Both the position numbers and the translations under genes were made by a program. A DNA stretch of 64,000 nucleotides from an uncultured Acidimicrobiia bacterium (GTDB lineage Bacteria; Acidobacteriota; Terriglobia; Versatilivoradales; Versatilivoraceae), in the NCBI GenBank assembly GCA_963786955.1, contig CAWBAT010000003.1:224001-288000 (forward strand). Direction: 5' to 3'. The notes under the pieces were generated by a model that was not told the DNA's origin, ran no database searches, and saw nothing but the letters and a program-made list of their open reading frames with translations. Shown here in pieces: positions 10,401 through 51,265 of the stretch; position 1 is the stretch's first letter, and each line of letters starts with the position of its first letter.

Positions 10401-10760
10401 TTTGTGGATCGGTCAAAGTCCGTTCGAAAGTCACCGGCGGCATATGCATTGCCGGATCTTTTGAACTGATTCGCTGATAGACCCGGCTGGCTCCAGCATT
10501 TCCCGGAACGATGACTTGATAGCCTCCCCGGTCCGCGAAGGCCCCGCCTTCGTATCAAGCCGCAAGTTCGCCATTCTTTGCCCTTCATCAGGCCCATGAC
10601 ATACAAAGCAGGTATCTGAAAGAATCGGACGAATGTCGCGATTGAAATCAAGCGTCTTTGTTGGCTGGTCCGCAGCCTCAACTGCAGAAGCATCCAAAGA
10701 ATACCAGACGAGGCCGATCAAACCAATCCCGCCAACCCAGTAGAGCAATCGACGTCTCAA
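7443..10760 (-). CDS. PSD1/PSCyt (DUF1549/DUF1553) planctomycete-type cytochrome c protein with LamG-like insert; split by several frameshifts
   Basis: Fragments: [20 protein letters not shown] (CxxCH), [67 protein letters not shown]. Confidence 0.85.
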
Positions 10761-22026: not shown

Positions 22027-25000
22027 ATGAGTAAGTTTGGGCAACGGATGTTAGTTTATGCCAGTGTGGTGATTCTTACCCTAGTAGCTACGGTTTCTCC
22101 CTTCATGGCGCAGACCAACCGGGGCACGATCACGGGAACAGTAACCGATGCGTCTGGAGGTTTGGTCGTGGGGGCCACTATTACTGCCATCAATACCGGG
22201 ACAAACGTTCGTACGACGGCAACAAGCGGAACAGGGGGGAGTTTTACCGTCCCGCTCCTGCAGGTGGGGCAGTATCAGGTGACGGTCGAACACCCGGGCT
22301 TCAAGAAATTTGTTCAGGGCAACATCATCGTAAACATTGCTCAAATTACTCGCGTGGATGCCAAACTGGAAATAGGGCAGGTCAGCGAATCCGTCGAAGT
22401 CTCTGCAGTGGCAGTCCAGGTTCAGGCCGATAGTTCTGAACGAGGTGTGATTATTTCGGGGAAGCAAGTTCTTGATTTGCCCTTGGTGGGGGTGCAGGAG
22501 GTACGCAATCCGGCCTTTTTCATTTCGCTCGTTCCTGGAGTCACCAGCAGAGGGACGGCTTATGGCACTTATAGCGGTGGCGGTCGGCAGTTAAATACCA
22601 CCGTCAATGGAAGCCCGAGCGGCAGTATTGAGTGGCTTCTCGAAGGCGCCAATATTGGTCAAGGAACCGTTTTGTCAGGGAGTTTTCAACAACTCCCCTT
22701 TCCCCCAGACGTGGTGGGAGAGTACAACGTGATGACGCTCCTTCCTCCGGCGGAATTCGGACAATCCGGGTTAGGAATCACCAACTTTACATTGAAGAGC
22801 GGGACGAACGGAATTCATGGCACAGTCTATGAGTATTTCCGCAACACTGCCTTGGATGCAAGGGGCTTTTACGCTGCGAAGACGCCTAGGAACATGCAGA
22901 ATGAATTCGGAGCGACTGTCGGCGGGCCGATCCACAAAGACAAGACTTTCTTCTATGGGTGGTATACGGGGTTCCGCAACATTAAGGAGCCTGGCGCCAA
23001 CTCTAATGATACTGTTCCCACCGATGCGATGAAGAACGGCGACTTGAGTAACATTCTCGGCCCCCAGATTGGCACTGATGCCCTGGGTCGGCCGGTTTTA
23101 TCAAATGCCATTTACGATCCGGCAACTACGCGACTCGTCCCGGCAGGTGCGATTGACCCGGGTACCGGTCTCGTCAACAGCAGTGGTGCCGCCGCGTGGA
23201 TGAGGGATGCGTTCCCGGGAAACATCATCCCGCAAAACCGGATTGATCCTGTGGCTAAGAATATGTTTTCGTACTTTCCGAGCGTGGGGACTTGCTCGAC
23301 TTGCCGCTATGGTTACCAGTACAGAATTGGAACACGGCGCAGGAATCACGTCAACCGACAGCATCAACAATTGGGGTGTCAAACTTGACCATGTGTTCTC
23401 CGACAAAAACCGGATCTATGGATCTTATATGTGGAAGAGTGAGTATGTTCCAGCGGGTTCGAAATATCCAGACCCGATTGGTGAAGGTTCCTACTCGACA
23501 AACGGATGGCGCGTTCTTCGCATCAGCCAGGATTATTTCATGAGGACGAACCTGGTCAACCACTGGACGTTTGGATTTAATCGGGAGTGCTAATGCCAGT
23601 CTCCCGACGGCGGGCTTTGGCTGGCCGGCAGTCCTCGGATATTCGGGTGTGCCTCAGACGGGTCTTGGGTCGGTCTTCCCGGAAAGTGATATCGCAGGCT
23701 TGGGGGCCACTTACGCGAGACAGGGTGTGAATACTTCATGCCAATAACAATTTCAGTATTGCGGACGACATCACCTGGATCAAAGGAAAGCATACGATCA
23801 AGGGCGGCTTCAGTTACATGAAGTTGCAAGTAAACCAGTTGGGAACCAGTTACTCGGCCAGTTATAACCAATACAATGCCGGACCGACCGGGCTTATGGA
23901 CTCCAAATTTTATGATGCCGGCTGCGCGGTAGGTGGCAACTGTACAGGGATGGGAGTTGGAAGCTTCCTCTTAGGCTTGCCGACCAGTGGCACGGTAGGC
24001 ATCACTGCGACAGAGGTCGCGGATCGAATGGGGCGATGGGCAGGTTATGTCCAGGACGATTACAAGATGAGCTTCAAAGCTTACCTTCAACATGGGTCTT
24101 CGTTGGGACGCGTTCCTGACCCACCGTAGACGCGCACAACCAAAAATCATGGCTGGATCCATTCACGATGAATACCGCTATCGGGATCCCAGGTGCCATG
24201 GTATATGCGTCAGATGCAAAGCGTGCGCCATCGACTACTTATATGAAGAATTTTGGACCACGTTTTGGGTTTGCCTATAGCCTCAACCCGAAGACGGTAA
24301 TACGGGGTGGGTACGGGATGCTATACACAGCCGGAGGGGCCCAACGTTCCTTGGCAAGTGCTTGGGAACAATTGGGGTACAATGGTTCCCAGGGTTGCGG
24401 CCAGTCTTCCCTTGGCGGGTTTTCAGGAGCGGTGTCTTGCTCTCCCCAGGGTCTAGCGATGTCCACATGACCCTCGCCACCGGTTGGCCTGCTCAATACT
24501 TCCTACCTGTGGGGAATCTCACTCAAAACGCCTTTGATGGCCAAGGTCCACCGACGTGGGGGCCATGGCCTGGGGATGAGATCCCGCCCAATATCCAAAC
24601 TGCGCAGCTTCAGTATCCAGCGGCAGCTTCCAGGGCAGATTATTCTCGATGTTGGCTATGTTTGGACCAAAGGAACACATTTGTCGAGTCGTTTGATCCA
24701 CAGTAATGTGGTGGAGGTCTAAATCAGAGCTTCGGGGCCGATCTCTTCAAGAACATTGCGGATCCTACCATCCAGGCTCTTCCCAGTTGTACAGGCGATG
24801 CCGATCGATCCCGCGAACGGCAGGCATGCTCCATTCACGGGGTTCCAGACTCTGTGGGGTAGCGGTGCCCAACTGGGCCAGGCATTGCGTCCAATGCCGC
24901 AGTACCGGAACGACAGCGTTCAAGGGCTTTCGCAATTGCGGGATTTGGAGAAACTCAGGGGATGTCAACCTATAATGCCCTCCAAATTCAGGCCAGGAAG

Positions 25001-25776
25001 AATCTATCCTATGGCTTGAGCTTCCTGGTATCGTACACCTGGTCCAAGACTCTTACGAATGCAGGAAGTCTAATCAATGAATTCGCAGGATTCACCCAGG
25101 ACTTCTATAACACAGGTGGTGAGAGAGCGCTGAGCCTCAATGATTATCCGAGTAACTTGGCGATTTCCTATCAGTACGAATTGCCCTTCGGTCCGGGCAA
25201 GAAATGGGCGAACCAAGGGGGAGTGATTAACAAGGTGGTTGGAGGATGGAGCGTTGCCGGATTCAGGTCTTACCGGAGCGGCGCCCCTCAGGGGGTCTTT
25301 TCTTCAGGTAATTCCCTTAACCCTTACATGTCGGATAACAGTTTCACCACCCGCGCCAACCGCGTTCCCGGCGTGCAGAAGTATTCGGATGCCTGGCTCA
25401 ATGGGACCTGGGATCCCAATGGTGCTGGAGCGCTGGGGCAACGATACAACATCAATGCTTGGAATGACCCAGCTCCTTTTACGTTTGGGACCACTCCAGT
25501 CAACGGATGGCGATATCCGCCAATTGCCTTACCTGAATGAGGATATCTCCATCATCAAACGGACCAACATTAATGAACGGGTTAGCGTTGAATTCCGTTG
25601 TGATTTCCTGAACGCCTTCAACCGTGTCCTTTTCGGCTTCGATCAGGGTGGGGACCAGTACGGCCAAGCTATCAGGCGGGCGGTATTGGAGGTGGCGTGA
25701 ATGGTACTTCGGCCGCGTGGCAGTCCAGACGAATGCCCCGCGCGAAATTCAATTCGGATTAAAGATCAACTACTAA
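22027..25776 (+). CDS. TonB-dependent receptor (Oar-like) with carboxypeptidase-regulatory-like N-domain; multiple frameshifts
   Basis: RBS AAGGAG; [63 protein letters not shown]; ends [12 protein letters not shown]. Confidence 0.88.
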
Positions 25777-33167: not shown

Positions 33168-36100
33168 ATGGATCGAAGAGAATTCCTACAAGCTGGCTTG
33201 ATATCCGCGGCTTGTCCGCTGGGAAGTCACTTCAATTGGGAGATTCCAAGCGGTTAAAAAAATTCCAAGTCGGGGAATCAATGGCAATCTTGATCTGACC
33301 AACGATGAGCTAGACTGGCGTCTCGCATGGGACGAAAATGGTTTGAAAAGCACGGGCTTCGTCAATAAACTCACGGGCCGCCCCTTCCTGTTCTCCTCAG
33401 CAGAGGAAATTTGCCTTGACATTCTCGGCCTCCAAGGTGCGAATTGAAATTCCTTGGTGGAAGTTTCGTCTTTGGTCCAGACGATCATCCTGTTGCCCGC
33501 GAGCAGGAGCAAGGATTGAAGCGAGGCTTTCATCTTAAGAACGAGCCCGATGCAAGTTGGGGAGCAACCGAGAATTTATTATTGAGAAAGCTTCGCGGCG
33601 CTGGGGAGTCACAAAGAGATTCCAGTACGATGGATACGGCTGGTTCCGTCATTGGTTTGCGCTGCCACAGGAGGGACAGGGAGAAAAAATCTTCTTCGTC
33701 CTGGGTGGATATGACTGCCAGGATTGGAACGAATACTGGATCTACGTGAATGGTGAGGAAATAGGACACAGAACTTCAGAGGGCCGATGGCGACAGCCAG
33801 GCCAGTTTGTCCTTGCCCCGGAATGCCGGGATATTCGGCACTTATTTTGGTCCTGGTGGACAAAAATCTCTTGGCCATCCGAACCCGTGGATTTGATAAA
33901 AGCTTTGGTGGTTACAGCGAGGAGATTTTACGAAAATACGTTTATAAACCCGTCCTTGTGGATCAGTATATTTCGGTCGGACAGCCTTTCATTCGGCTCA
34001 CCGATTTTCAGGTAAAGAAGTCTCTCAACAGAGCTGGAAAATCAAGTCAGAGTTCGAACTCTTCAGCCCGTCCTTGTCCGTCTTCGTTTCTGCCCGCTAC
34101 ACGCTCAACGGCCCTCTCCGGCGCAAATCATTGGTGATCAAAAACCATGGTGACAAGGATCTTCTCCTTTTGGATGTCGGTCTCGACAACTTCTCTCTTA
34201 ACGTTCCCACCTCAGAAGGAGGATCTGGGGAGCCTTTATTCATTGACGGCGAAGCGTTCTGCGCCATTGAACATCCAGCGGGATTGAACCAAGGGGGTAA
34301 AGGCAGCGTCAAACTCACACATTATCCTGGGATCCATTTGCCTTCCGGGGGCCACGTCCTCAGTCACGCAGCCTTATTGGGGGTTTCCAACACAGGTGAA
34401 ACATTCAATCATTTCACGTCTTATTTACAGGCCAACAGTCCCCGGAAGAAGAAATTCCTCTCCGTGTATGATCCCTTTGGCATGAACAACCAATGGGGAT
34501 GGTGCCCGACCCTCAATGACCTTGAAATGCTGAATGGCTTGAAGGTTTTGGAAGAATGGCAAAAGCAAGGAATCCATTTTGACTATTACGTTCCGGACTG
34601 GGGATGGTTGGATAACAGCTCGGACTTGACAAGGTTCAGACCAGAATGTTTTCCCGAAGGGCCACGTAAGGTTGTCGGATCGTGTCAACGCTCTCGGAAC
34701 CAACTTTGGATTGTGGTTTTCGGTCAGTAACGCGGCGGTATCCTGCGGGGAGTACCCGCCTGTTGAGCCCAGCCGGGTGCCGATTCCTGGAGGCCCGGCT
34801 CAGCCGGCGCCTCCGGTGCAGGCTTACAGAAATGGATATCTTGCCAGGGAGAATTTGAATGGCAACCTATGTGTGGCGTCAGAGCCTTATTTCACGATCC
34901 TCAAAAATGCGATTCTTTATCATATCCGCGAGAACAACCTCAAGCTCGTGAAATTAGACATGGGGAGCTATTACTGCAACAGTTCCGAGCACAACCATTT
35001 GCCGGGAAAATTCTCTGTTGAGAAGATGCATGATCGTCTGATCGAATTGGCCCAGCGCCGCGCGATAAGCCGAACCTGAAATTTGTATCGTATGGTATTG
35101 GGGTGTACGGTCCCCGTTTTTCGCATTATACGGGGACTTCATATTTGAATCGGGATTATTTATGGAAGGTTCGGGAACGAGCTGGGTCCCTACTTTGTAT
35201 TACCGCGACTCGGTCACCCTGAACCTGGACATGAGTACGCAGTTTGCAAAAACCATTCCTTCAATCAATAAGGACAGCCTCGGAGTATGGCTCGCAGAGA
35301 ATCGCTGGGGGAATTTCATGGCCCATGAGCGCTGGCGGGAGGCTTTGGTTATGGATCTGGGGCGGGGAAGTCTATTGTTCCCTCAACTGTGGGGGAGACA
35401 TATACCTTCTCGACCAGGAGGATCTCGTTTTTCTGGGGGAGATGCAGTCACTCTCCAGGAAGAACGAATCTCTCTTCCTCCAACGGCGGCATCATTGGGG
35501 TGATCCCTGGAAGAATGAGATCTACGGATACACTTATTTTCAGGGAACGCACGGTTTTGTGTTTCTAAGCAATGTCCACTTCATGGCGCGCAAAGTGGTG
35601 TTGCCACTTGGGCCAACTCTCGGCTTGAAAGCAGAATCAGGCAAAAGTGTCGAACTCATCAGCCATTTCCCGGAGAAGAAAAGAATGATGCGTCAAGATG
35701 GGACGGATTACCGCACAGGGGAATCCGCCGAGTTATGGTTGCGCCCGTTTGAAGTTTTGATGATCGAGGTTTTTCCCTGCGAAACCGGGGACAAGATCCC
35801 CAGGCTGCCGCACGAGACATCTATTCTTCAACAGGCGTCCAACATGGCTACTCCTCTCGCTCTTCATCGGCTCGCTCAGGAAGAGGATTGGATGCGGATG
35901 GAGTTTGCCGATGCAAAGCGATTTGAGGCCCAAGGGAAGAGAAAGAAGGTCTTTTCATTTGCAACCGAGTTTGATTCACTGGAAGGGAAACAGGCCGTAC
36001 TGGCAATCTCCATCCGATTGAGGGCGGGGATGGAAGACTGGCGTTATGCGCCTTCCGTTGCCGAAATCGTCCAGGTCGTGGCGCGACTGGGCAACCAAAC

Positions 36101-36345
36101 TGCTCCATCTCATTCCCGTTCCAGATGCGAGACAGTTTGGCAATACTCAAAGCGCCGGGGGGTCTTGGGTGGTCTATAAATGCAGGTTGAGTCTGCAGGC
36201 AGTTCCTTCGGAGTTTCGGTTCGCCGTTCACTGTTACTTGCCGGAGCATGTCGTTCCGGAGATCGAAGGCTGGTTCCTGAGCCAGTGGTGGGAGGAGCGA
36301 AGTCGGCCCGTAGCGGAAGGTTTTTACGCAGATAGCCCTTCCTAG
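33168..36345 (+). CDS. Large Tat-exported glycoside-hydrolase-like protein (clan GH-D-like TIM barrel, sugar-binding N-domain); many frameshifts
   Basis: RBS GGAGG, MDRREFLQ; YDGYGWFRHWF, FDYYVPDWGW, FGLWFS and LVKLDMG segments in successive frames. Confidence 0.6.
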
Positions 36346-37115: not shown

Positions 37116-38207
37116 TTAATACGTCCCATACTTATGAAATGCATTAATCATGGCAATGAAGTTCTCATGCGGAATGTAATTGATGATGCTATGGCTGCTG
37201 CCTGCGACCCATCGTCCACCGGGCTTGAGGACATCCATATGCGCGCAGACATCGCGCTCCACATCGGCAGGAGTCCCCTGGACAAGCGGCCAAGTTATGT
37301 CTATGTTTCCGAACAAGGTAAGCTGAGAGCCATAGCGCTTCTTGTAATCTCTGTAGTCAATGCCCGACGGGTCCATGGGAGTGATGCCATCAACCCCCAT
37401 TTCCAGGAGCATTTCAATGCCGTCATCGATTTTCCCGTCGGAGTGGAACATGATGGGAATCTTGGCCTCTCGAGCCGGCGCCAATAAGCGATCATAATGA
37501 GGACGCCAGATCTGTTTGAAGATGTGCGGTCGAACGAAGAGTCCGGATTTCAGTGCAAAGTCATCCGCAGCGAATAAGACATCAATGCCTTCCCGGACTG
37601 CTCCCTTAGCAAGCTCAGCGAAATAATCGGCCGACCGTCGAAGCATTTCCTCCAGCAGGTCAGGCTCTTCCATCACCATGACCATGCAGTCCACAAAACC
37701 GACGACAAACTCATAGATGGTTTGGAAGATACAACCAAAGAGAAAAATGACACCAATATTGCTTCCTTTGGCTGCCGCTACATAGTCACGCACATACTGC
37801 AGGCGTTCCTCAATTTCTTCCTTGCCCGGCCAAATGATGCGCTCAAAATCAGCTCGAGTCTTAATACTTCGGTTTGTAATTGGGCCAATGGTTCCGTCTG
37901 GACGAATGTGTTTCAAGGGAGTCCAGATGGCTTCAAGAGCAATGGCGTCTTGACCGAGCAGACGGCAAAGTTCTATGTAATCTTTCGGGAACATGGGGCG
38001 TGCTCCTTCCGCGGCTGCAGCGCCCTTGGCAGGATCTCCTCCTATCCCCAAAGTATTACCGGCATACCGGCCGAGCAACTTCTCAACATGCTGGTCTTCA
38101 TCGAGAATTTCGAAATGGGGGACCCGGTCAGTCTTTTCGCCCTGAAGGGCGGCAATGAGCCGGCCGATATGGGGCTCCCCGGAATACGGTTCAATTCTAA
38201 GCATCAT
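37116..38207 (-). CDS. Uroporphyrinogen decarboxylase (URO-D/MtaA-CmuA)-family protein
   Basis: GEKTDRVPHFE, ADDFA, FHSDG, LFGNID, PGGRWVAGSSHSI and IPHENF motifs. Confidence 0.85.
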   Translation of the reverse strand: MMLRIEPYSGEPHIGRLIAALQGEKTDRVPHFEILDEDQHVEKLLGRYAGNTLGIGGDPAKGAAAAEGARPMFPKDYIELCRLLGQDAIALEAIWTPLKHIRPDGTIGPITNRSIKTRADFERIIWPGKEEIEERLQYVRDYVAAAKGSNIGVIFLFGCIFQTIYEFVVGFVDCMVMVMEEPDLLEEMLRRSADYFAELAKGAVREGIDVLFAADDFALKSGLFVRPHIFKQIWRPHYDRLLAPAREAKIPIMFHSDGKIDDGIEMLLEMGVDGITPMDPSGIDYRDYKKRYGSQLTLFGNIDITWPLVQGTPADVERDVCAHMDVLKPGGRWVAGSSHSIINYIPHENFIAMINAFHKYGTY

Positions 38208-38218
38208 TTGCTCCCTTT

Positions 38219-39196
38219 TTAATGAATCATGGCCTGCCGGACGAGACTCGATGCCGTACAAGCATCTGCGCTTCGGATAGCTTCCTTAAATTTGTCCATT
38301 CCAACCCGATCTACCGCCTTGAAAAAGCCGGTCATCCATTCCCGGCACTCTGTTGCTGCGCGGACTCCATCCTCCCGATAGGGGAAGATATCTAGTGTCA
38401 ACCAGCCCTTATAATCGAGCCTCTTGAGCCAATAGACCAGTTCCAGATACTCGACCAAATGAACCGAGCCCACCATCATGTCGTCATCCCAGCTTCGATA
38501 GTTGTCGTTCAAGTGAATATAATCGAGCTTGCCAAAAGAGCTGAGCAGTGCAGCGGCTTCAGCCACATTCTCTCCGGCAGCCAGGGAGTGGCCGACATCC
38601 AGTAATACTCCCACCTTCTCCAGTCCTTGGAGAAGCACAAGAGCTTTGGCCGCGGAGTTGACAAAACAATGGGTCCGGGGTTCCTTTGCTTTATATTCGA
38701 CTAAAACCCGTACCTTGCGAGTGTGTTCGGAACAAGCCGAGAGCCCATCGCGCAGCCATTTCCAGGAATCCAGATAGTCTGACTGAAAAGAGTAATCGAA
38801 ACCGTCCTGTCCCGGCCAGACATCGACAAACGGGCATTCGAGTTCTGCGGCCCAATCCATGACTTTTTTGACTTCATCTACCGCAGCTTGACGCGTTTTT
38901 GCATCTGGCGCCGCAAGACTTCCTTTTCCCCACTTAGCCTGTGTCCAAAGATCCGGAGTGAGCATACACAACTTCAGCCCCCGCTCATTGAACATCCTGG
39001 CTACGTCCCGGATATTCTGGTCATTGACATGCCAGTTGCCGACCAATTCCAATCCATCCATTCCTGTAACTTTGGTCGCCAGGTCCAGCATCTCCTCCAT
39101 ATTCTTTCCGCCTCCGCCATACCCACTCAAACAAAATCGATCTGCACAATTTCCAAAAGTGGGTAAACACGCGCCAAAGAAATGATTCGAAATCAT
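38219..39196 (-). CDS. Xylose-isomerase-like TIM barrel sugar isomerase, D-apiose isomerase (ApsI)-like
   Basis: VWPGQDGFDYSFQ, EYKAKEPR, LLDVGH, NDNYRSWDDDMMVGSVH and LDIFPYRED motifs. Confidence 0.8.
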   Translation of the reverse strand: MISNHFFGACLPTFGNCADRFCLSGYGGGGKNMEEMLDLATKVTGMDGLELVGNWHVNDQNIRDVARMFNERGLKLCMLTPDLWTQAKWGKGSLAAPDAKTRQAAVDEVKKVMDWAAELECPFVDVWPGQDGFDYSFQSDYLDSWKWLRDGLSACSEHTRKVRVLVEYKAKEPRTHCFVNSAAKALVLLQGLEKVGVLLDVGHSLAAGENVAEAAALLSSFGKLDYIHLNDNYRSWDDDMMVGSVHLVEYLELVYWLKRLDYKGWLTLDIFPYREDGVRAATECREWMTGFFKAVDRVGMDKFKEAIRSADACTASSLVRQAMIH

Positions 39197-39325
39197 GGTA
39201 GTCCTCCAATCGAATTTGTAGGGGCGAAGCATTCGACGGTAAGATTAAGGGAATGATCGACAATCATCATCGAATTGCTTCGCCCTACGGATGGTTTTGC
39301 TCGGCGAGAAAAGTTCAATTACGAA

Positions 39326-40859
39326 TCAGTAGGCGTCACGGAGCTCCGCCCTGCAAGCCTCTTCTGGTCGTTGGAAGTCACACCAGTTTTGTCCGCCTGC
39401 CTCCACCAGGCGAAGATATTTTCCATAATAATCCTGCCAGAGAGTGCGATCTTTCGGTTCGTATTCCACCAGGTTTGACGAGGAACGAACGACCTGGCGA
39501 ATTTCATCCGGAGAGCTGAGACAGCCAAGGGCGAAGGCTTGCACCATGATGTTTCCCGCCACGGTAGCTTCTGCAGGGCCCGCCACGACGCGAAGGCCGG
39601 TCGCATTGGCGGTAAGCTGGCAGAGGAGTGTGTTCTTCGATCCGCCCCCCACAATGTGCAGGACAGCAAATGAGCTCCCCAGCATTGCACCCAGCTGATC
39701 CAGTTTATGCCGATAGGCTAGTGCCAGACTTTCCAGAATACAGCGCGTTACCTCACCTGGACCCTGGGGTATCGGTTGAGCCGTTTGTTGACAGTAGCGC
39801 AGAATGGCGTGCAACATCTCTTCAGGAGCCAGAAACCGAATGTCATCTGGATCAATGAAAGCCAAACCTCCGGGAGCCTCAACGGCAAGGCAGGTCAGTT
39901 CCGGGTAGGAATGTTGATCGACCCTGGCGTTGCCAGCCTGCACGGGCTTGTTGAAGCATCCAGAGTCCCATGATATTTCGACACAAAAAGAAACTCTGTA
40001 AAGTCAATTCATTGAAGACCCCGGCCGAGAAAGCGGCGGGTGAAGTGACCACTTCAGGGGTCAGCGCACCCAGGATGGACCAGGTTCCAGAGCTCAGAAA
40101 GGCCCAATCCTTACCTTGAGCCGGCACTGCAGCCACAGCGGAGGCCGTGTCGTGGGTACAGGGAGAAATCACCCGCCCCCGCTTCACTCCCGTGTTCTTG
40201 CTGACAGAGTCACGAACCTCTCCTAAGATAGTCCCTGGGTTGACGAGGTCCGGGAGAAGCCGGACAGGAAGACCAGTTTGTTCACGACTTCATGATTCCA
40301 CTCATGATTCCAAGGGTCGTAAAGCTGGGTCGTAATGGCGTTGGTGCGCTCGCAGCTTTTCCGGCCAGTCAGGAAGTAAGCCAGCAGATCTGGCATCATG
40401 AGAAAAGCGGATGCGCAATCAAGCAGAGAGCTTTGCTGCAGACGCAAGGAGAGTAATTGGGCTGAAGTGTTGATCGGCAATAGCGACATGCCCGTTCGGC
40501 GGAAAAACTCCTCCAGAGCGATTCTCGACCGCACCACCTCAAGAATTTCTCGGTGCGACGGTCACGATGATGGACTGGGTTCTGCAGCAGATCACCGTTT
40601 TGGGTCAGAAGGCCAAAGTCTACTCCCCAAGTGTCGAACCCGATGCCATCCAGCAAGTCCCCGGAACGAGCCGAATACTCACTCATTCCCTTCAACACAT
40701 GGTTATACAGAGCGAGCATATCCCAATAGAGAGTCTGGTTCACCTGGACGGGTTCATTCGGGAAGCGATAGATTTCATCGAGGGTCAGCCGTCATCCTGC
40801 AAGTTGCCAAGAACGGCGCGGCCACTCTCTGCTCCAAGATCAAAGGCAAGAAATTTCAT
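39326..40859 (-). CDS. Rhamnulokinase-like FGGY sugar kinase; frameshifted
   Basis: MKFLAFDLGAESGR, GFDTWGVDFGLL, HDTASAVAAVP, FLSSGTWS, IVGGGSKN and GPAEAT motifs. Confidence 0.85.
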
Positions 40860-41171
40860 GACCGCATCCCAGACAAGCGTATTCGTTAATCGCGTTAGGC
40901 TTGACGAATTTCGCTGAGAAATTTCTAGATGGGGCGGTCTCACTGGACCGTCAATAATTCCCGACGATCTGTGCAGGCAGAGGCCCGCACCACAACCTTG
41001 TGGTGCAGGCGTCCTCGCCTGCCCCCAGCGGGCGAGGGTCGCCACTGCGGGCGTGGACGCCGGCGCTCCCATGGGCTGATCCCTTCTAGCTCGTCCAAGT
41101 CAGATTTAACCCGCAAGGTCGAATGTCGCTTCGTTGTCAGGTTTCACCATTTCAAACCAAATCGCCTATAT

Positions 41172-42517
41172 TTAGTCAAATTTCATCGGCTTGGGATGGA
41201 ATTTGGGAGCGACACGGAGCCAGGGACTCTTGGGTCGCTCGATGTATCCCCATTTTTCCAATGCCCGACGAAGCTCTTTATTCTCGGGCTTCTTGGCGCA
41301 TTCTAGGAAATCCTGGTCCGACATCGTTGCTGCGATGGCTTGTTGCCAGGCTTTGGCTCCAGCGGTATACCCATCGGGATGGCCCAGCATACCCCCTCCG
41401 GCCGGGATCACGATGTCCGTGCCATATTCTCCCACCAGGATGGGGGTCAGTCCCGGGTACACCCCGCGCAAGGCATGGGAAACATGGGTTTGATGTGACC
41501 CAAGGGAGCCAGCTTGATATGGGAGGTGCGGATCCCTTCCTCCAGGCTCACCATGGGAATGCTCGACCAGAAGGTAGGAGTTAGCATCAAGTCAGCGCCG
41601 CATAGGCGAACGAGTTTGGCAAATACCGGCCAGGCGATTCTGGGCTGAGCCGCAATCATATGTGAGGCGTGGAATAAGATCGGAACGTTGATCGCAGGGT
41701 CCTCGGCCAATTGCCTGACAACCGGAAGACCCGCCGAGTAGCAAATTAACAAGCCCGTGGCTCCGAGTTCCACTGCCCGGGCTGCTTTATCGAAAACCCG
41801 ACGCGGTTCATCCGTGATACTCAGGAAGTAGAAGACTCGCTTGCCTGTCTTCGCTTCGGCCTTCTCCAAAGCGTCGCGCACCGCTTTGACGCGATCTTCA
41901 TATTTGCTGTTATACACGTCGCTCGTCATCTCGTCATCTTTCATCATGTCCACGCCACCCATCGCCGTCTGGTAGCATTGGTCTGCTACTTGCTTGGGTG
42001 TCATTCCCATCTTAGGCTTGATGATATGCAGGGAGAGCGGCCGTTTGGGGATCTTCAGTTCCTGGCGGATTCCCGGCACACCGAACTTGGGTCCCTTGAA
42101 CATGGCCAGCAGATCGTCCGGCAGGAAGACATCCAGAAGCCTTAATTTGGGGCTATAGGCAAAACAGTTTCCGGCGATGCTCAAAATCATCATGGGAACA
42201 TTGTCGATCCAGGCATCAATCGGAAACGCCAACTGGACTACGGCTAAACGGCGGTAGGCATTGCCCGTGGGAATCTCGTAGTAGCCAACCATCTTCCCGC
42301 TGAGTTTTCGCCGGACTTCATCGGTATCTTCTTCGACTTTTTCCCATGTTCCGGTCGAACCTTCGATGGCCATCGCCTGGATGAGAGCAAAGTGATCGAT
42401 GAAATCCTCTCCAGGCAACTCGTCATCCATGACATAAGTAGCGACAATGTGATTCGAGCGATTGATGCCGTCAAGAGCATGAACAAAAATATCGGGGTCG
42501 TAGTACTGTTTGAACAC
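41172..42517 (-). CDS. RuBisCO-like protein (form IV RLP); one frameshift near 41465
   Basis: RBS AAGGAGG + GTG; EGSTGTW, AGN, GPKFGVPGIR, IIKPKMG, KDDE and AGGGMLGHPDG motifs. Confidence 0.9.
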
Positions 42518-42554
42518 TGTATCCTCCTTTTGGAATGAGTTGCATGATAATGAA

Positions 42555-43422
42555 CTAGCTTTTCTCCACAAGCCCGCAGAATCTTTTGAGCTCTCTGCTC
42601 GGCCTCCGTTGCGAGTTTCTTTGCCTTGCCGCCGGCCCAGCTTCCCAAGATGAAGTGGATTGAGGCAATGATACAGAGTTGAGGAATGATGGAAGAGGAG
42701 ACAGCGGCATTGATGCGGTGCTCTCGAAAAGCCGTCAATAAACGGAAGTCGCTGGCCTCGGCCAGTGCAGACCGGGGATAGTTCGTGATGGCTACCGTCC
42801 GCGCCCCTCTCTTTCGAGCGGTCTGGATCGCTTCCACAATCTGTCGTGTCTTGCCCGTGTGACTGATGCCGATCGCCACATCTTTGGGACCCACGATCTC
42901 TGTGGCAAAGATTTGCGTGTAAGGGTCGGTGATGGCAATCGCTGTAAGTCCGAGACTCATCAAAACCTCTTCCCCCCGGCGAGCGACCAAAGCTGACGAG
43001 CCAAGGCCTAGGATGATGATTTTCCGGCTTCGGTAAATATGCCGGGCTACCTCGGTCAGCTCCACCTCATTCAGCATCTTTTCCGTATCAGTAAGGCCCT
43101 GGCGGTTATATTCAAACACGCCGTGGAGGATACTCCTGGGGGTTGCGCCTTCAACAAATTCTTCCAAAGTAACCACATGGGTGCTGGCTATAGAGGCCGC
43201 CAAATCCAATTGAAATTCCCGATAGCCCTCGTAACCCAAGCCTCGGCAGAATCGATAGACGGTTGCCGGACTCGACCCACAAATTTGGGCCAGCGCATCA
43301 ATGGACAAATTCCGGACACGGAGAGGAGACTTCAGAACTACTTGGCCGATACGCGTTGCCGCACCCGATTTGTTTTGGAGGCTGGATCGAATCCTGAGGA
43401 GACAGGAACCATTGGTGCTCAT
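42555..43422 (-). CDS. MurR/RpiR-family transcriptional regulator (HTH + SIS); true stop probably ~42555
   Basis: SIDALAQICGSSPATVYRFCRGLGYEGY, GLGSS, GISHTGKT and VAITN motifs; the ORF tail overlapping the RLP is probably a frameshift artefact. Confidence 0.88.
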
Positions 43423-43457
43423 GATCCTCCTGCTTCAACTAAAACCTGTTACTTTTA

Positions 43458-43697: not shown

Positions 43698-45457
43698 GTG
43701 GAAGTGAATCGTTTCTTAGTTCAATGTTTACTGCTTGTTACAGGGCTGACGGTGGCTTCATTGTCGCAGCAGCAGAAAGCGGGCAGTTCTATAGTCCCTT
43801 TGCCCATATTTAAGGATGTGACAAAGGAAGCTGGTGTGGATTACCGGATCACCTGTGGAGACGAGGTAACGGAATTCCTAATCGATGTGAATGGGGAGGG
43901 GGCTGCTTTCTTTGACTACGACAACGACGGGGATCAGGATATTTATTTGGTCAACGGTTCTTCCCGCAAATCACAAAAATCTGGCAAGCTTCCTCACGAT
44001 TACCTCCTGAGGAACAACGGAGACGGAACTTTCACCGACGTCACCGAGCAGGCGAAGTTGGGAGACACGGAATGGGGGGGGGAGTTGCCGTTGGTGACTA
44101 TAACAATGATGGGTTCTTGGACCTTTATGTCACGAATTATGGCCCAAACAAACTGTATCGAAACAATGGGGATGGGACATTTACCGAAGTCGGGGAGAGA
44201 GCAGGTGTCGCCGATCCCCATTGGGACATCCCCAAATGGAGCATGGGAGCTGCATTTGGGGATGTCGACAATGACGGTTACGTCGATCTTATTGTCGCCA
44301 ATTTTAGCGATTTCAACTACCAGCCGTTTGGGCCGGCGCCCAGCGAATCTAACCCTTGCAAAATGAAAGGTGTCCCAATTGCCTGTGAACCAGATCGATA
44401 CTTAGGCCAGCAACACCTCTTTTACCATAACAATGGAGATGGGACTTTCACGGATCTCACAAAAGAGGCGGGGCTCCTTCGAAAGAATCCCGGACACGGA
44501 TTTGCCGTTGTTTTGACGGACTTTGACAATGACGGTGACTTAGATCTCTATGTGGCCAACGATGCAGGCCCGAATTTCTATTATGTTAATGATGGCAAAG
44601 GCCACTTCAAAGACTTCAGCGTCTTGTCGGGGACTTCTGTCGATGAGTTTGGTAACTCTCAAGGCTCGATGGGTCTGACAGTAGGTGATTTCAATAATGA
44701 CGGGCTGCAGGATATCTTCATTACTAATTTCATTGACCAGAGAAGAACACTCTATATGAATCAAGGGAATAACCTTTTTTTTGACCAGACCTCGAACTTT
44801 GACATTGGGATGATAGGCTTTCACTACAGTGGGTGGGGAACAAAGTTTTTCGACTTTGACAATGATGGCTGGCTTGATCTTTTCTTTACTAACGGGCATA
44901 CGATGGAGCAGTTGGAACTCGTCTACCCGAACGATCCATTTGCGCAGCCTAGTTATTTGTTGCACAACCTTAAGGGTAAGAAGTATGAGGATGTCTCAAT
45001 AGCCACTGGATTTCGGACGATCCGGGACAAGGCGAGTCGGGGCACAGCCTTTGGTGACTATGACAACGACGGCGACATTGACTTGCTAATTATCAATAAG
45101 AACGATACCCCGTATCTTCTCCGGAACGACGGAGGAAATTTGCAGCATTGGATCAACATCCGTACCGAAGGAGTTTGGAGCAACAGGGCGGGATTAGGGG
45201 CAAAGGTTAAAGTTGCAGGGGGAGGCATCACCCGTCACTTTGAGGTTCGTGGGAGTGATAGTTACTTGTCAAGTAACGATCTCAGGGTTCATGTCGGCAT
45301 GGGGAATCTCGAGGTAGGCGATATCGAAATCCGCTGGCCGAGTGGCCGGGTGGACAAACAGTCCGATGTCAAGCTGAACCAGTATTACCTTGCCCGCGAA
45401 GGAGAGTCATTGGTACCGGATCCACGAATGTCAAAATCTAAGATTTCGAAGAAGTAA
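43698..45457 (+). CDS. ASPIC/UnbV (CRTAC1-family) protein; frameshift in a G-run at ~44075
   Basis: Signal peptide, DYDNDGDQD repeats, NRAGLGAKV, SYLSSNDLRVHVG and RWPSG motifs. Confidence 0.88.
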
Positions 45458-47051: not shown

Positions 47052-48977
47052 TTACTTCATTTCAGAGATCCGGAGCGTTTGGTTCTCTTGAAGACCCTGT
47101 GTGACGACCTGTTTGCGGCCCGAGGGCCAATCCACCTCGACACGATCGATTTGCTTTGTATCGCCCAGGCCGAAGTAAAGTGGGAGAGCGCTTTGCGAGA
47201 GGTAACCGGATTTGCCGTCATGGTATTTTGTATAGACGTGCCCTCCGGCTCGCACACGCACAGTAGCGCCCAGCCCATTCCGGTTTGATGTTTTCCCAAT
47301 GAGCACGATTTTGAGCCAATGAACCGGCTTGCGCTGTGCAAGATTGCTGATCAGCAGCTGGGGCGCTGAATTAAACTCATTGGTTACAATATCGAGATCG
47401 CCGTTATTATCGAGATCAAACATGACGGAGGAACGGCTTCCAAGCGTACCCAACATGGTTACATTGCCCGGTTGCCCCTCACAGATTTTCGTGCCACGCC
47501 GTTCACCAGCGCAATCCAGGACGAACCATGGCGTATGGGTCTCGCCACCTCGTCGCGGCTCGATTCCGAGCAGGAACTCGGCATCCAAAAACTTCTCCCC
47601 GCGGTTGTTCAAGAGCATTGAATTGATCCCGTATCGGAGAGGGAAATTCATGCTTGAAGAGATAAAAATGTCATTCCAGCCGTCGGCGTTAAGATCATCG
47701 ACACTCACCCCCCAGGGCCAATAGTTCTCCGCTCCGAGACGGTCCGAGATTTCCTCGAATTTTCCGTTTCCCAGGTTGTGGAAGAAGGCGTTGCCGAAGA
47801 TGAACGTGTCTCTGGCCGCACCGAGTTGTTCTTCTGGCTTGATGTGTTGCTGAGGGGTCTTCAGCTTTTCTTCCTTGGGTGTCCGGTCACCCATCATGTC
47901 GGAGTGCATGTCGGTTAGAAATAAATCCATCCGCCCGTCGTTGTCGTAGTCGAAGAATTTGATTCCCATAGTTCCAAAGGGGGTCTTCGGGAAGTACTTG
48001 TCAGTTTTATCGACGAATTTCTTTCCCCCTTCATTCTCAAAATAGTGATCATGCCCTTGCATGTTCAAGATGAATAAATCGGGCCAACCGTCTTCATTGA
48101 GATCGGTGAAGCTCGCATCTCCGGACCAACTCTCGGGGTGTAGGCCGACTTCCGCTGTCACGTCTTTGAATTGGTTGTGACCCATGTTCTTGTATAGGAT
48201 AGGATATTCGGAGCGATTGGGAAACATGTGCCCAAAAAATGCGTCCTCAAATCCAACGTAGCTGCCATCCGGCCACCGCTCATCACTCGTGTACTTCCCG
48301 ACATTACACAACAACAGGTCGACCAGCCCATTGTTGTCGTAGTCGAAGAAGACGGCTCCCGAGGAATGAGCGGCCAAGCCAACTCCGGCCTCCTTGGTGA
48401 TGTCCGTGAAGTGCCCGTGGCCGTCATTTTCAAAGAGCACATTCCCGCCGCGAACGCTCGTGACAAACAAATCCTGATCCCCATCATTGTCGATGTCCGC
48501 GAAAGACGCGGTGACGCCGATCCGGTCGGGCAACCCGACTCCTGCCTCCTTTGTGATGTTCTTGAACTTACCACCGCCCAAATTCAGCCAAAGCTCATTG
48601 CCTCCGACTTGGTTCACAAAGTAGATATCGTAAAGTCCGTCGCTGTCGACGTCTGCTACGGCAATGCCATTTCCATGGTCGTAATGCACGGGCTTGTGAT
48701 GCCTGCCTGCATCCTCGACGATATGGTGGACGAAAGTGATTCCACTTTCCTTAACCTTGTCGACTAGTTGGAACTGATAGAAGACTTTGAACTGGTTGAC
48801 AGTTTCTTGCTGAGCCTTTTTTCGCGCAGGAAGCGCTTCCACCCCGATATCCGGATCCGGTATTTGAATCGTTGGCAGGGACTGGCTCCCACCACCCCCT
48901 AGACTGATGCGCCCAGCAGCAAGTAGAAGCAGTGACAAGAGCACGATCAGAACTGGCCGATTCCAATGATTTGCCAT
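47052..48977 (-). CDS. ASPIC/UnbV (CRTAC1-family) protein, tandem paralog 2
   Basis: HYDHGNG, DxDxDG repeats, SGYLSQSALPLYFGLG and WPSG motifs; RBS AAGGAGG. Confidence 0.9.
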   Translation of the reverse strand: MANHWNRPVLIVLLSLLLLAAGRISLGGGGSQSLPTIQIPDPDIGVEALPARKKAQQETVNQFKVFYQFQLVDKVKESGITFVHHIVEDAGRHHKPVHYDHGNGIAVADVDSDGLYDIYFVNQVGGNELWLNLGGGKFKNITKEAGVGLPDRIGVTASFADIDNDGDQDLFVTSVRGGNVLFENDGHGHFTDITKEAGVGLAAHSSGAVFFDYDNNGLVDLLLCNVGKYTSDERWPDGSYVGFEDAFFGHMFPNRSEYPILYKNMGHNQFKDVTAEVGLHPESWSGDASFTDLNEDGWPDLFILNMQGHDHYFENEGGKKFVDKTDKYFPKTPFGTMGIKFFDYDNDGRMDLFLTDMHSDMMGDRTPKEEKLKTPQQHIKPEEQLGAARDTFIFGNAFFHNLGNGKFEEISDRLGAENYWPWGVSVDDLNADGWNDIFISSSMNFPLRYGINSMLLNNRGEKFLDAEFLLGIEPRRGGETHTPWFVLDCAGERRGTKICEGQPGNVTMLGTLGSRSSVMFDLDNNGDLDIVTNEFNSAPQLLISNLAQRKPVHWLKIVLIGKTSNRNGLGATVRVRAGGHVYTKYHDGKSGYLSQSALPLYFGLGDTKQIDRVEVDWPSGRKQVVTQGLQENQTLRISEMK

Positions 48978-49097: not shown

Positions 49098-51023
49098 TTA
49101 TTTTGGTTCGATGATCCGAAGTGCCTGGTTTTCCTGTAAACCTTGCGAGACGACCTGTTTGCGACCGGAGGGCCAGTCCACCTCGACACCATCGATTTGC
49201 TTTGTGTCGCCCAGGCCGAAGTAAAGTGGCAGAGCGCTTTGCGAGAGGTAACCAGACTTACCGTCATTGTATTTTGTATAGACGTTCCCTCCGGCTCGCA
49301 CACGTACGGTCGCGCCCAGTCCATTGTGGTTTGATTTTGTCCCAACGAGCTCGATTTTAAGCCAGCGGATCGGCTTACGCTGCGTTAGATTACTGATCAA
49401 CACCTGGGGCGCTGAATTAAACTCATTGGTTACAATATCGAGGTCCCCATCATTGTCGAGATCAAACATTACGGAGGAACGGCTTCCAAGCGTAGCCATC
49501 ACAGTGAATTGCCCTTTTTGTCCCTCGCAGACTTTGTTGCCTTGCCCGGCACGGGAGCAATCTACGTCGAACCAAGGCGTGTGGGTCTCACCGCCTCGTC
49601 GCGGCTCGATCCCGAGCAAAAACTCAGCATCTAAAAACCTCTCCCCGCGGTTGTTTAAAAGCATTGAATTGATCCCATAGCGGAATGGGAAATTCATACT
49701 GGAGGAGATAAAGATGTCATCCCAACCGTCGGCGTTAAGATCATCCACGCTCACCCCCCAGGGCCAATAATTCTCCAATCCAAGGCGGTCTGAGACCTCC
49801 TCAAATTTTCCGTCTCCCAGGTTGTGAAAGAAGGCATTACCAAAGATGAACGCGTCTCTTGCTGCGCCGAGGTGTTCTTGCGGCATAATCTCTTTCTCAG
49901 GTGTCTTCAATTTTTCTTCGCTGGGTGTCCGGTCACCCATCATGTCGGAGTGCATGTCGGTTAGGAACAAATCCATCCGCCCATCATTGTCATAGTCGAA
50001 AAATTTGATCCCCATGGTTCCAAAGGGGGTCTTGGGGAAATACTTCTCGGTTTTGTCAACGAACTTCTTCCCTGCTTCATTCTCAAAATAGTGATCATGA
50101 CCTTGCATATTCAAAATGAACAAATCGGGCCAACCGTCACCATTGACATCGGCAAAGCTCGCATCTCCGGACCAACTCTCGGGGTGTAGGCCTACTTCCA
50201 CCGTCACGTCTTTGAACCGGTTGCGGCCCAAGTTCTTGTAAAGGACAGGGTATTCGAAGCGAGTTGGTATCAAATGGCCGAAAAACGCGTTCTGCAGCCC
50301 CATATAGCTACCATCCGGCCAGCGACCATCACTCGTGTACTTCCCGACATTGCACAACAGCAGATCCACGAGCCCATCGTTGTCGTAGTCGAAGAAGACG
50401 GCTCCTGAGGAGTGAGAGGCTAAGCCAACTCCAGCCTCCTTGGTGATGTCCGTGAAGTGCCCGTGGCCGTCATTTTCAAATAGCACATTCCCACCGCGAA
50501 CGCTGGTGACAAACAGATCCTGATCCCCGTCATTATCGACGTCCGCGAAAGACGCGGTGACGCCGATCCGGTCGGGCAGCCCGACTCCCGCCTCCTTTGT
50601 GATGTTCTTGAACTTACCGCCGCCCAAATTCAGCCAAAGCTCATTGCCACCGACTTGGTTCACAAAGTAGATATCATAGAGCCCGTCACCGTCGACGTCT
50701 GCTATGGCGATGCCATTTCCATGATCGTAATGGACGGGTTTGGAGTGCCGACCAGCATCCTCGACGATGCGGTGGACGAAAGTAATTCCGCTTTCGGCAA
50801 TCTTGTCGACCAGTTGGAACTGGTAGAATACTTTGAACTGGTTCACCGTTTCCTTTTGCGCTTTTTGCCTTGCAGGTAGAGTGTCTACCCCAATATCTGG
50901 GTGCGGATACGGAATCTTTGGCAGGGACTGGCCCCCGGCACGGCCAAGACTGACTCGCACTGCTGCCAACAAAAGCAGACCCGAGAGCGCGATCAGAACG
51001 GGGCGGTTCCTGCAGTAGTTCAT
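49098..51023 (-). CDS. ASPIC/UnbV (CRTAC1-family) protein, tandem paralog 1
   Basis: Highly similar to 47052-48977; ATG 51023 after GGAGGAG. Confidence 0.9.
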   Translation of the reverse strand: MNYCRNRPVLIALSGLLLLAAVRVSLGRAGGQSLPKIPYPHPDIGVDTLPARQKAQKETVNQFKVFYQFQLVDKIAESGITFVHRIVEDAGRHSKPVHYDHGNGIAIADVDGDGLYDIYFVNQVGGNELWLNLGGGKFKNITKEAGVGLPDRIGVTASFADVDNDGDQDLFVTSVRGGNVLFENDGHGHFTDITKEAGVGLASHSSGAVFFDYDNDGLVDLLLCNVGKYTSDGRWPDGSYMGLQNAFFGHLIPTRFEYPVLYKNLGRNRFKDVTVEVGLHPESWSGDASFADVNGDGWPDLFILNMQGHDHYFENEAGKKFVDKTEKYFPKTPFGTMGIKFFDYDNDGRMDLFLTDMHSDMMGDRTPSEEKLKTPEKEIMPQEHLGAARDAFIFGNAFFHNLGDGKFEEVSDRLGLENYWPWGVSVDDLNADGWDDIFISSSMNFPFRYGINSMLLNNRGERFLDAEFLLGIEPRRGGETHTPWFDVDCSRAGQGNKVCEGQKGQFTVMATLGSRSSVMFDLDNDGDLDIVTNEFNSAPQVLISNLTQRKPIRWLKIELVGTKSNHNGLGATVRVRAGGNVYTKYNDGKSGYLSQSALPLYFGLGDTKQIDGVEVDWPSGRKQVVSQGLQENQALRIIEPK

Positions 51024-51265
51024 GTTTTGTCTCCTCCGAAAGTCTCGGCCTCTTCTGTTAATTAATGGAAGCGCTGTCGACTTGTCTAAAAAGTCAGCGG
51101 GGTTGACCAGCGCTCGTGGAGGGTCACTTCTACACAGTGAAAAGATAGCATGTTCGTATCGGGCTTGCAATTTGCCGGCCCGATTAACAGGTTACCCCCA
51201 CCCATCAAAGGCAGGGGCTCGGCGAGGCCGCCGATTCTGATTCTGTGGTACACTCGGCGAAATTC

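Follow-up and report, generated by a model that had tools for sequence, protein, structure and literature searches.

A conserved gene cluster joining a RuBisCO-like protein to a sugar-type isomerase and kinase in uncultured bacteria

Layout of the gene cluster

RuBisCO-like proteins (RLPs) are the non-carboxylating cousins of the main CO2-fixing enzyme, and a handful of reactions is known for them. One such protein is encoded in a 64,000-nucleotide stretch of DNA from an uncultured bacterium of the Terriglobia (contig CAWBAT010000003.1, positions 224,001 to 288,000; this whole stretch is hereafter called the window), where positions 37116-43422 of the minus strand hold co-oriented genes for an RpiR regulator, the RLP, an FGGY kinase, an isomerase and a URO-D-family protein. 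The genes form a genuine RLP cluster that is conserved but uncharacterised and belongs within a known superfamily, and the set most likely breaks down an unusual sugar by an uncharacterised route. In what follows the genome with the window is called G000, two further genomes of the same genus are G001 and G002, and labels of the form L0xx-L1xx denote RLP neighbourhoods fetched from other records. Public records title G001 'Terriglobia bacterium' and G002 'uncultured Acidimicrobiia bacterium', and the genes seen in the window (PSCyt2/PSD1, OMP_b-brl_4, FG-GAP/ASPIC) agree better with the first of these titles.

The Pfam matches of the five gene families are far beyond chance, in agreement with a previous reading of the locus from its letters and open reading frames (ORFs) alone (the sequence-only reading), which had recognised five co-oriented genes, among them an RpiR regulator, an RLP, a rhamnulokinase-like FGGY kinase and a member of the URO-D family. 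The RpiR/MurR-family regulator (42574..43422, minus strand) carries HTH_6 (3e-15) and SIS (5.3e-18) domains within ORF 42247-43422 and is 80% identical to residues 3-281 of its intact 286-amino-acid G001 ortholog. It is followed by the form IV RLP (41172..42519, minus strand; about 447 amino acids when read as in G001), which was delimited by Pfam and tblastn: RuBisCO_large_N (2e-10) and RuBisCO_large (1.5e-23) match at 41450-42571, a second RuBisCO_large piece (1.1e-12) lies at 41175-41591, and tblastn gives 92% identity to the G001 protein, whose gene has a GTG start with a GGAGG-type ribosome-binding site upstream. The FGGY carbohydrate kinase (39326..40859, minus strand) is found in five frame pieces, four of them with FGGY_N/FGGY_C matches (39326-40791); all pieces score best against rhamnulokinase among the NCBIfam models, and the intact ortholog has 497 amino acids. 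The last two genes are intact. The isomerase of the xylose-isomerase fold (AP_endonuc_2; 38219..39232, minus strand; Pfam 9.5e-29) has its start at 39196 if placed by homology with G001, with 39232 as the alternative, and is 87% identical to the G001 protein over 323 amino acids in a single frame, while the URO-D/MtaA-superfamily protein (37116..38261, minus strand; Pfam URO-D 6.6e-26) starts at about 38204 by homology. In G001 the operon is wholly intact and encodes products of 286 (RpiR), 447 (RLP), 497 (kinase), 325 (isomerase) and about 365-376 (URO-D-like) amino acids; the co-oriented genes are separated by short gaps only.

The RLP belongs to a separate form IV clade

When the G001 RLP was used as a query, 867 proteins were matched at E<=1e-10 among 8000 candidates scored. 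The clade is large and strongly conserved: the best 120 of these 867 matches, which bear automatic names only, are 68-92% identical, and 118 full-length sequences share the residue signature described below. It spans many phyla of uncultured bacteria, and identities of 60-92% were found across records of Terriglobia, Bryobacterales, Armatimonadota, Omnitrophota, a planctomycete, Verrucomicrobiota, Clostridia, Actinomycetota, Spirochaetota and others. Yet the protein is present in only three of 41 relatives of the window genome, all of them in its own genus. The RLP is therefore an accessory, laterally moved trait.

The G001 RLP falls under every curated NCBIfam cut-off. It scores 263.1 against a cut-off of 409 (NF007095) and 214 against 513.6 (TIGR03332) with the MtnW models, 213.5 against 497.45 with the form III model TIGR03326, and 121.6 bits against 700 with the OiaX model NF042437, and among solved proteins the Geobacillus MtnW enolase 2oek comes nearest (E 2.6e-59). 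A search of 1.84 billion cluster representatives returned 1775 matches, and the 96 full-length ones among the best 150 were labelled by NCBIfam; seven of them pass an MtnW cut-off, seven pass a form III cut-off, and the ten nearest to the RLP have pipeline names only. In a quick-search tree (105 rows, LG+G4, SH-aLRT support), the RLP family and six unnamed representatives form one clade with a support of 99, separate from the clade of the seven MtnW-passing representatives, which is also supported at 99. The family falls in the MtnW/'Ykr' half of this tree, opposite the half with the form III and OiaX-like rows. The sequence-only reading had asked for a phylogenetic placement, and neither the cut-offs nor the tree revealed clustering with any characterised family. 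Judged by these comparisons, the RLPs constitute an uncharacterised form IV clade that is distinct from MtnW, form III and OiaX-like proteins.

A second, very divergent RLP (26% identity) is encoded about 3 kb past the end of the window, at L013:5803-7218 on the minus strand (G000:C3:289803-291218). It has A at N123 and sits on a long branch near unnamed form IV representatives, and it belongs to a different sugar cluster, together with a PfkB kinase, an alpha/beta hydrolase, an AP_endonuc_2 protein, a GFO/IDH/MocA oxidoreductase, an aldo-keto reductase and an RraA-like aldolase.

Residues of the RLP active site

Residue positions were numbered by alignment with representatives passing the form III cut-offs, the roles of the residues follow established RuBisCO enzymology, and counts refer to the 118 full-length family sequences. 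The family keeps E60, T65, W66, N123, K175, K177, K201, D203, E204, H294, H298, G381, G403 and G404, and eleven positions are invariant in all 118 sequences (N123, K175, K177, K201, D203, E204, H294, L327, G381, G403 and G404). Thus, when the family is compared with a bona fide RuBisCO, the metal site K201/D203/E204 and K175 are present throughout, and K334 and the second phosphate site R295/H327 were not found. In the window RLP, R295 is replaced by A, H327 by L and K334 by S; S334 occurs in 116 of the 118 sequences, position 295 is A, G, C or P in 117 of them, with no Arg among its four commonest residues, and C is found at position 379.

All the motifs listed by the sequence-only reading (EGSTGTW, KPK, KDDE, GGG, FHASH, DLMLTP and PTFWSSIP) are present in the translations. 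On the alignment the loop-6 Lys and the Arg/His of the second phosphate site are indeed absent, as had been suspected, which upholds the view that the protein is not a CO2-fixing RuBisCO. The accompanying suggestion of a monophosphate substrate also fits, with the residues of the first phosphate site (P1) kept and the second site lost. The clade appears to combine a RuBisCO-like enolisation apparatus with an MtnW-like apolar pocket at the second phosphate position. Given the make-up of this pocket (A/G295, L327, S334), the active site would fit a substrate that carries a single phosphate and whose tail is non-phosphorylated and probably small or apolar.

MtnW/YkrW enzymes (Geobacillus kaustophilus 2oek, Bacillus subtilis 2zvi) are the closest solved proteins, sharing with the RLP family the same half of the tree, the triad K201/D203/E204, L327 and S334. 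Automatic pipelines extend the MtnW name to the RLP clade, in IMG as 2,3-diketo-5-methylthiopentyl-1-phosphate enolase, and both the missed cut-offs and the residues argue against this name. Position 123 is Asn in 118 of 118 family sequences, whereas in the MtnW clade of 13 rows it is Lys in the 12 typical ones and Arg in the outlier P0241; Imker et al. 2007 are said to have identified this lysine as K98, the catalytic base of the MtnW enolase. Likewise, the MtnW clade has G60 and a non-Lys residue at 177, in contrast to the E60 and K177 of the RLP family. The gene context differs too, with mtnK, mtnA, mtnB, mtnX and mtnD around MtnW versus an FGGY kinase, a xylose-isomerase-fold protein and E1/E2 proteins around the RLP. 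As the RLP clade keeps E60, N123, K177 and H298 beyond what MtnW has, its chemistry would bear on how carboxylation arose from enolisation.

OiaX and OiaT resemble the window RLP in being RLPs inside sugar-catabolic clusters. Carter et al. 2018 reportedly assigned them a substrate of the form R-C(OH)(COO-)-CO-CH2OP and decarboxylase and transcarboxylase/hydrolase reactions, respectively. The OiaX-like representatives keep R295, H327 and K334, which the RLP family does not, and the routes of OiaX/OiaT need a prior oxidation (ApnO, dehydrogenases) that is not seen in the operon; an outline of the oxidative apiose pathway is given in a section of PMC13753588. A further parallel is provided by the Rhodospirillum rubrum RLP, described in an excerpt of PMC6302742 as a 5-methylthioribulose-1-phosphate 1,3-isomerase, which like the RLP considered here, as we read it, acts on a 2-ketose-1-phosphate with a non-phosphorylated tail. 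Its substrate comes from MtnP and MtnA, whereas the window operon has an isomerase and an FGGY kinase.

Conservation of the neighbourhood

The conservation of the cluster was followed in 108 fetched loci (28 genome contigs and 80 metagenome contigs). Pfam annotation of 232 neighbouring ORFs from 18 loci provided labelled proteins, which were used as tblastn probes on all 108. Merging near-identical RLPs left 92 loci, and dropping L039, L040, L041 and L121 as distant or fragmented left 88 distinct ones, of which 52 have at least 6 kb of flank and 24 have at least 6 kb on both sides; counts below are given for the 52 and, where two are quoted, also for the 24.

An FGGY kinase accompanies the RLP in 35/52 and 19/24 loci, an isomerase in 39/52 (either ISO, the type of the window, or ISO2, a second isomerase 38% identical to it), and the two together in 30/52, so that the check on neighbourhood conservation proposed by the sequence-only reading came out in favour of a gene set kept together. 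In the well-flanked loci L044, L076 and L116, FGGY and ISO are the only labelled partners of the RLP, which argues for this trio as the functional core. A regulator of the RpiR or DeoR type is present in 31/52 loci. At least one of E1 alpha, E1 beta and E2 was found in 34/52 and 15/24; these proteins are pyruvate-dehydrogenase (PDH)-like and mostly score under the PDH equivalog cut-offs. Less frequent companions are the URO-D-like protein (18/52; 8/24), an SDR (13/52), a class III aminotransferase (12/52), a class II aldolase (7/52) and a corrinoid protein (3/52, with B12-binding genes in 3 of the 88 distinct loci). A module of fixed order, consisting of an aminotransferase, a 268-amino-acid protein, Amidohydro_2, an SDR and ISO2, is repeated in 11-12 of the distinct loci.

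RLP, kinase and isomerase thus make up the constant core, and the window genus has a short form of it to which the URO-D-like protein is added. Two statements of the sequence-only reading have to be revised in this light. The lack of a dehydrogenase, which had been taken as a hallmark of the operon, is a feature of the short form in the window genus and not of the family, given the E1/E2 proteins and SDRs of other loci. The URO-D-fold protein, to which a step of the pathway had been assigned, is accessory rather than core at a frequency of 18/52.

G000 does contain an E1 alpha/beta pair, located on another contig (L122:8396-10396, minus strand; G000:C6:329398-331401) with no adjacent E2 and beside a Peptidase_M24 gene. 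Its E1 beta shares 71% identity with an E1 beta linked to the RLP cluster in another Terriglobia record, and in L016 and L030 the RLP cluster likewise has M24 genes at its flanks. The pair was rejected as a dedicated part of the operon on the grounds that neither G001 nor G002 has a close ortholog of it.

In a few loci of anaerobe type (L027:5654-8837, L046, L101 and L052:6141-7565) a full corrinoid methyltransferase set was observed, with two URO-D-family proteins and a B12-binding protein or with an MTTB-family protein, and these sets hint at demethylation of a methylated substrate there. In the Christensenellaceae-titled L032, the RLP is immediately preceded on its upstream side by part of a group II intron reverse transcriptase/maturase (8246-8752, plus strand).

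Kinase, isomerase and URO-D-like protein

The intact G001 kinase was compared with solved structures, where it matches the L-fuculokinase of Streptococcus pneumoniae (4c23, 1.1e-89) and the rhamnulokinase of Escherichia coli (2cgj, 1.9e-84), an affinity to 1-kinases of 6-deoxy-2-ketoses. Rhamnulokinase RhaB, together with S. pneumoniae FucK, is its closest family, though it remains under the RhaB cut-offs (437 against 527.95 for TIGR02627 and 382.1 against 639 for NF007925). E. coli SE15 has an apiose cluster, named in a part of the preprint 10.1101/2025.09.14.675865, and the FGGY kinase encoded there is 21% identical to the G001 kinase over 131 amino acids (E 3e-5). The analogy with apiose and other branched sugars drawn by the sequence-only reading thus finds no direct support in the kinase, which is nearer to L-fuculokinase and rhamnulokinase. 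The best solved relative of the isomerase is the Pectobacterium protein 3ktc, deposited as 'xylose isomerase' (E 3.5e-57); the isomerase itself is far under the NCBIfam cut-offs for xylose and rhamnose isomerases and is neither RhaA nor FucI.

The set therefore shares the isomerase-kinase logic and the kinase family of the RhaA/B/D, FucI/K/A and DrdI/K/A trios, with an RLP in the place of their class II aldolase, although its isomerase and kinase do not qualify as members of the rhamnose enzymes. RhaA, rhaM and rhamnosidase genes neighbour some of the RLP loci.

For the URO-D-like protein, 729 homologs were found at E<=1e-20, and its AlphaFold2 model has a pLDDT of 88. Scores against the MtaA/CmuA models are 53-60 bits against cut-offs of 235-244 (TIGR01463, 53.4 against 235.4; NF004889, 57.4 against 244), and the HemE model TIGR01464 gives 17 against 302.95. 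A profile search of solved sequences reaches only MtaA (4ay7, 1.2e-7), whose 'HICG' aligns to 'HSDG' of this protein; FHSDG is invariant in 22 of 22 aligned URO-D-like sequences. The motif H-x-C provides zinc ligands in MtaA. No corrinoid (B12-binding) protein was detected among the Pfam-scanned ORFs at 27.6-52.9 kb of the window, and the two B12-like genes of G000 lie far from the operon. Because of the weak MtaA profile match and the replacement of H-x-C by H-S-D, the protein is neither HemE nor a canonical thiol methyltransferase.

A proposed pathway

The scheme that we infer, in its order of steps, its phosphorylation at C1 and its RLP chemistry and substrate, would proceed as follows. The RpiR regulator would sense a sugar phosphate through its SIS domain. 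The xylose-isomerase-fold enzyme would convert an aldose to its 2-ketose, and the rhamnulo-/fuculokinase-like FGGY kinase would phosphorylate it at C1. The RLP would then carry out the committed step, binding the single phosphate in the retained P1 site (T65, W66, G381, G403, G404), with the sugar tail at the position of the second phosphate site of RuBisCO, which here is small and apolar (A/G295, L327 and S334, as in MtnW). By means of the carbamyl-Lys/Mg2+ enolisation set (K175, K177, K201, D203, E204, H294, N123, E60), it would act on the ketose-1-phosphate through a 2,3-enediolate, with a shift of the carbonyl, a decarboxylation or a cleavage of a C-C bond as in RuBisCO among the possible outcomes, and it would take the place occupied by the class II aldolase in the rhamnose, fucose and 5-deoxyribose pathways. 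In lineages with linked E1 alpha/beta and E2 of the PDH/acetoin-dehydrogenase type, a thiamine- and lipoyl-dependent cleavage to an acyl-CoA may follow downstream; in the window genus this module is not linked and the URO-D/MtaA-like protein is attached instead.

We favour this general model, with an isomerase, a 1-kinase and then an RLP working on a ketose-1-phosphate at the aldolase position, by a slight margin over its being wrong; within it, that the RLP substrate is the product of the kinase is rather likely. The conservation of RLP, kinase and isomerase together underlies this proposal, and the most economical reading has the RLP act on a ketose phosphate made by the kinase. Here the sequence-only reading, which had the RLP acting directly on a ketose phosphate, is retained as an inferred step, and with it its monophosphate substrate and its conserved gene set; its framing by apiose and by a lacking dehydrogenase is not. 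As substrate we consider an acidic sugar from plant walls probable, either methyl-terminated (deoxy) or branched. The cluster would mark a so far unassigned pathway joining an isomerase and a kinase to an RLP, usually together with a PDH-like complex. In our literature search, combinations of a RuBisCO-like protein with rhamnulokinase, FGGY or acetoin dehydrogenase were not found, nor was anything on the RLP clade. Merino et al. 2020 (PMC7325909) mention, in one portion of their article, RLPs of undetermined function beside a DeoR-family regulator gene, and in the available portion of PMC13454268 form IV is not treated.

Several points weigh against this model. The reaction and the substrate of the RLP are deduced from sequence. 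Well-flanked loci exist without the kinase (L022, L031, L079, L080 and L114) or without the isomerase (L022, L031, L032 and L080), and given such loci the ketose phosphate could come from elsewhere. The genome itself has MtnA and an MTAP just under its cut-off, which could feed 5-methylthioribulose-1-phosphate to the RLP without isomerase or kinase. The role given to E1/E2 comes without a specific testable chemistry, and the best matches of the cluster-type E1 beta in G001 and G002 are 58-59% identical, short of a close ortholog. Finally, a scan for promoters and terminators stayed at chance level.

L-Aceric acid as a candidate substrate

A more specific and tentative proposal, to which we assign a low probability, is that the cluster is a catabolic route for L-aceric acid (3-C-carboxy-5-deoxy-L-xylose), a rare acid sugar with a branched chain that occurs in rhamnogalacturonan-II (RG-II). 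For this sugar an aldose-ketose isomerisation alone would give a beta-keto acid with no need of an oxidation, and a deoxy-ketose 1-kinase would then generate CH3-CH(OH)-C(OH)(COO-)-CO-CH2OP. This product would be the one-carbon-longer homologue of 3-oxo-isoapionate-4-phosphate, reportedly described by Carter et al. 2018 as the substrate of the apiose-route RLPs OiaX and OiaT, and the RLP would decarboxylate it or cleave it in the manner of RuBisCO. To our knowledge, the apiose-route enzymes are the only RLPs known from sugar catabolism.

The proposal would explain at once the absent dehydrogenase, the deoxy-ketose type of the kinase, the apolar pocket and the best match of a linked class II aldolase-family protein, which is OtnC-like (141 against a cut-off of 250). 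Glycosidases of pectin or RG-II type lie beside several loci: apiosidase-like PF13204 in L022, L079, L080 and L083, GH127 in L026 and L078, GH28 in L020/L059 and L067, and GH106 in L068. These counts refer to the ORFs scanned, which in one of the three scans were 93 of the 149 unlabelled ORFs within 2.5 kb of the clusters, with no control set. BT1003 is classed as a GH127 enzyme. According to a part of the preprint 10.64898/2026.03.13.711244 it releases L-aceric acid, and GH140 is widespread in soil bacteria. A limited literature search found no pathway paper on aceric acid catabolism. Against the proposal stand the lack of relationship between the clade and OiaX, the absence from the RLP of the K334 that OiaX-like proteins keep, and the fact that several host lineages are not obvious pectin degraders.

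Alternative explanations

A different source of substrate is conceivable in the salvage of by-products of S-adenosylmethionine. Either the isomerase and the kinase acting on free 5-deoxyribose or 5-methylthioribose, or MTAP and MtnA, would supply the ribulose-1-phosphate. An RLP like that of R. rubrum would convert it as a 1,3-isomerase to a 1-deoxy- or 1-methylthio-pentulose-5-phosphate, E1/E2, where present, would cleave this acyloin to an acyl-CoA and glyceraldehyde-3-phosphate, and URO-D/corrinoid proteins would handle the methyl of the methylthio group. The place of the clade in the MtnW/'Ykr' half of the tree and its L327 and S334 are in agreement with such a role, as is the activity of RLPs of that group on methylthio-C5 phosphates, according to a section of PMC6302742. 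Class II aldolase, HAD or histidine-phosphatase genes and corrinoid proteins in some loci point the same way. So does the gene content of G000, where MtnA is over its cut-off, an MTAP-like protein scores 259.7 against 274.85 and, at 93% completeness, no MtnB over its cut-off, ARD or MtnC was found. However, MtnA passes its cut-off in 40 of 41 relatives and the RLP is present in three, so that the RLP is not needed to deal with 5-methylthioribulose-1-phosphate. Moreover, the RLP is an accessory trait that has spread laterally, is placed under a sugar regulator and often has glycosidases and sugar transporters nearby, and the kinase is rhamnulokinase-like and not MtnK-like. We therefore consider salvage unlikely. 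Complementarity with methionine salvage was also tried as a test and discarded as uninformative, with MtnA nearly universal and ARD patchy in the 41 genomes.

Still less probable, indeed very unlikely in our estimation, is a variant of the non-oxidative D-apiose route, in which an ApsI-like isomerase, the kinase and a thiamine enzyme (E1/E2 standing for a split transketolase) would do the work and the RLP would add a further step. Isomerase, kinase and thiamine enzyme are the parts of the transketolase route, as outlined in portions of PMC13753588 and 10.1101/2025.09.14.675865, the apiosidase-like PF13204 lies beside or inside the cluster in four loci, and the isomerase has the Pectobacterium protein 3ktc as its best solved relative. 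The distance of the kinase from the SE15 apiose kinase, when set against its fuculokinase match, and the low OiaX score of the RLP, with OiaX-like rows in the other half of the tree, speak against it. In addition, apulose carries no hydrogen on C3, and a C3 enolisation of RuBisCO type cannot occur on it.

Frame breaks at the locus

In the window genome three of the five genes are broken. Against its intact ortholog the kinase reads by tblastn in frames -3, -2, -1, -3 and -1. The RLP is split at about 41462, with residues 1-353 in frame -1 and 352-447 in frame -3, and its GGG motif lies in another frame than the remainder of the protein. The RpiR frame has lost the stop of its ortholog and overruns it by about 100 codons, to 42244, with a one-base difference from G002 at 42569. 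The six one-base frame-disrupting differences fall within a span of about 4 kb. In addition, the RLP-kinase spacer contains a copy of a dispersed repeat of about 200 bp (40870..41075, no strand assigned; blastn against its own genome); blastn of 40861-41180 finds matches at 33 other places, spread over 6 contigs. The repeat is absent from the RLP-kinase spacer of G002, relative to which the window shows insertions, and positions 40968-41106 show a depth spike and loose ends in the aligned contigs of relatives.

The operon could accordingly be seen as a decaying relic, with kinase, RLP and regulator as true pseudogenes and the cluster idle in this genome; the density of disruptions and the repeat between RLP and kinase would agree with this. 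However, breaks are about as dense in unrelated genes near the operon: a gene orthologous to that of a 1063-amino-acid G002 protein lies in six frame pieces (33814-36342, plus strand), an FG-GAP/ASPIC gene lies in two (43698-45457, plus strand), and PSCyt2/PSD1 (7562-10449, minus strand), OMP_b-brl_4 (24962-25700, plus strand) and, elsewhere in the genome, MtnA (G000:C5:378007-379001) are also split, while the stretch at 45.5-51 kb of the window reads cleanly, unlike those with split genes. With a genome of 5.65 Mb in 9 contigs, as is typical of long reads, this pattern looks like the uneven consensus quality of a long-read assembly. All pieces keep 66-92% amino-acid identity to G001, with no in-frame stops inside, and in G002 the kinase is intact and the RLP broken. 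Contigs from four public sequencing runs, each of which holds at most 0.19 of the words of the stretch, were aligned on 39300-43450. Every contig spanning a break has the corrective base (41462 in 4/4 runs, 40272 in 4/4, 40790 in 3/3, 40546 in 3/3 and 39919 in 1/1): at 41462 in the RLP the relatives have one additional base, and at the kinase breaks 40790, 40546, 40272 and 39919 the relatives have the missing or extra base. These contigs are 90-99% alike and come from relatives, not from the same strain, so that genuine private frameshifts are possible. Since the neighbours are broken too and the relatives carry the missing bases, the frame breaks are probably assembly indels and not gene decay, and we regard a relic as quite improbable.

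Apart from the operon, the cleanly read part of the window contains tandem FG-GAP/ASPIC-UnbV paralogs on the minus strand, at 47052-48977 and 49098-51170, both of which align over their full length to one G002 protein (90% and 86% identity, respectively).

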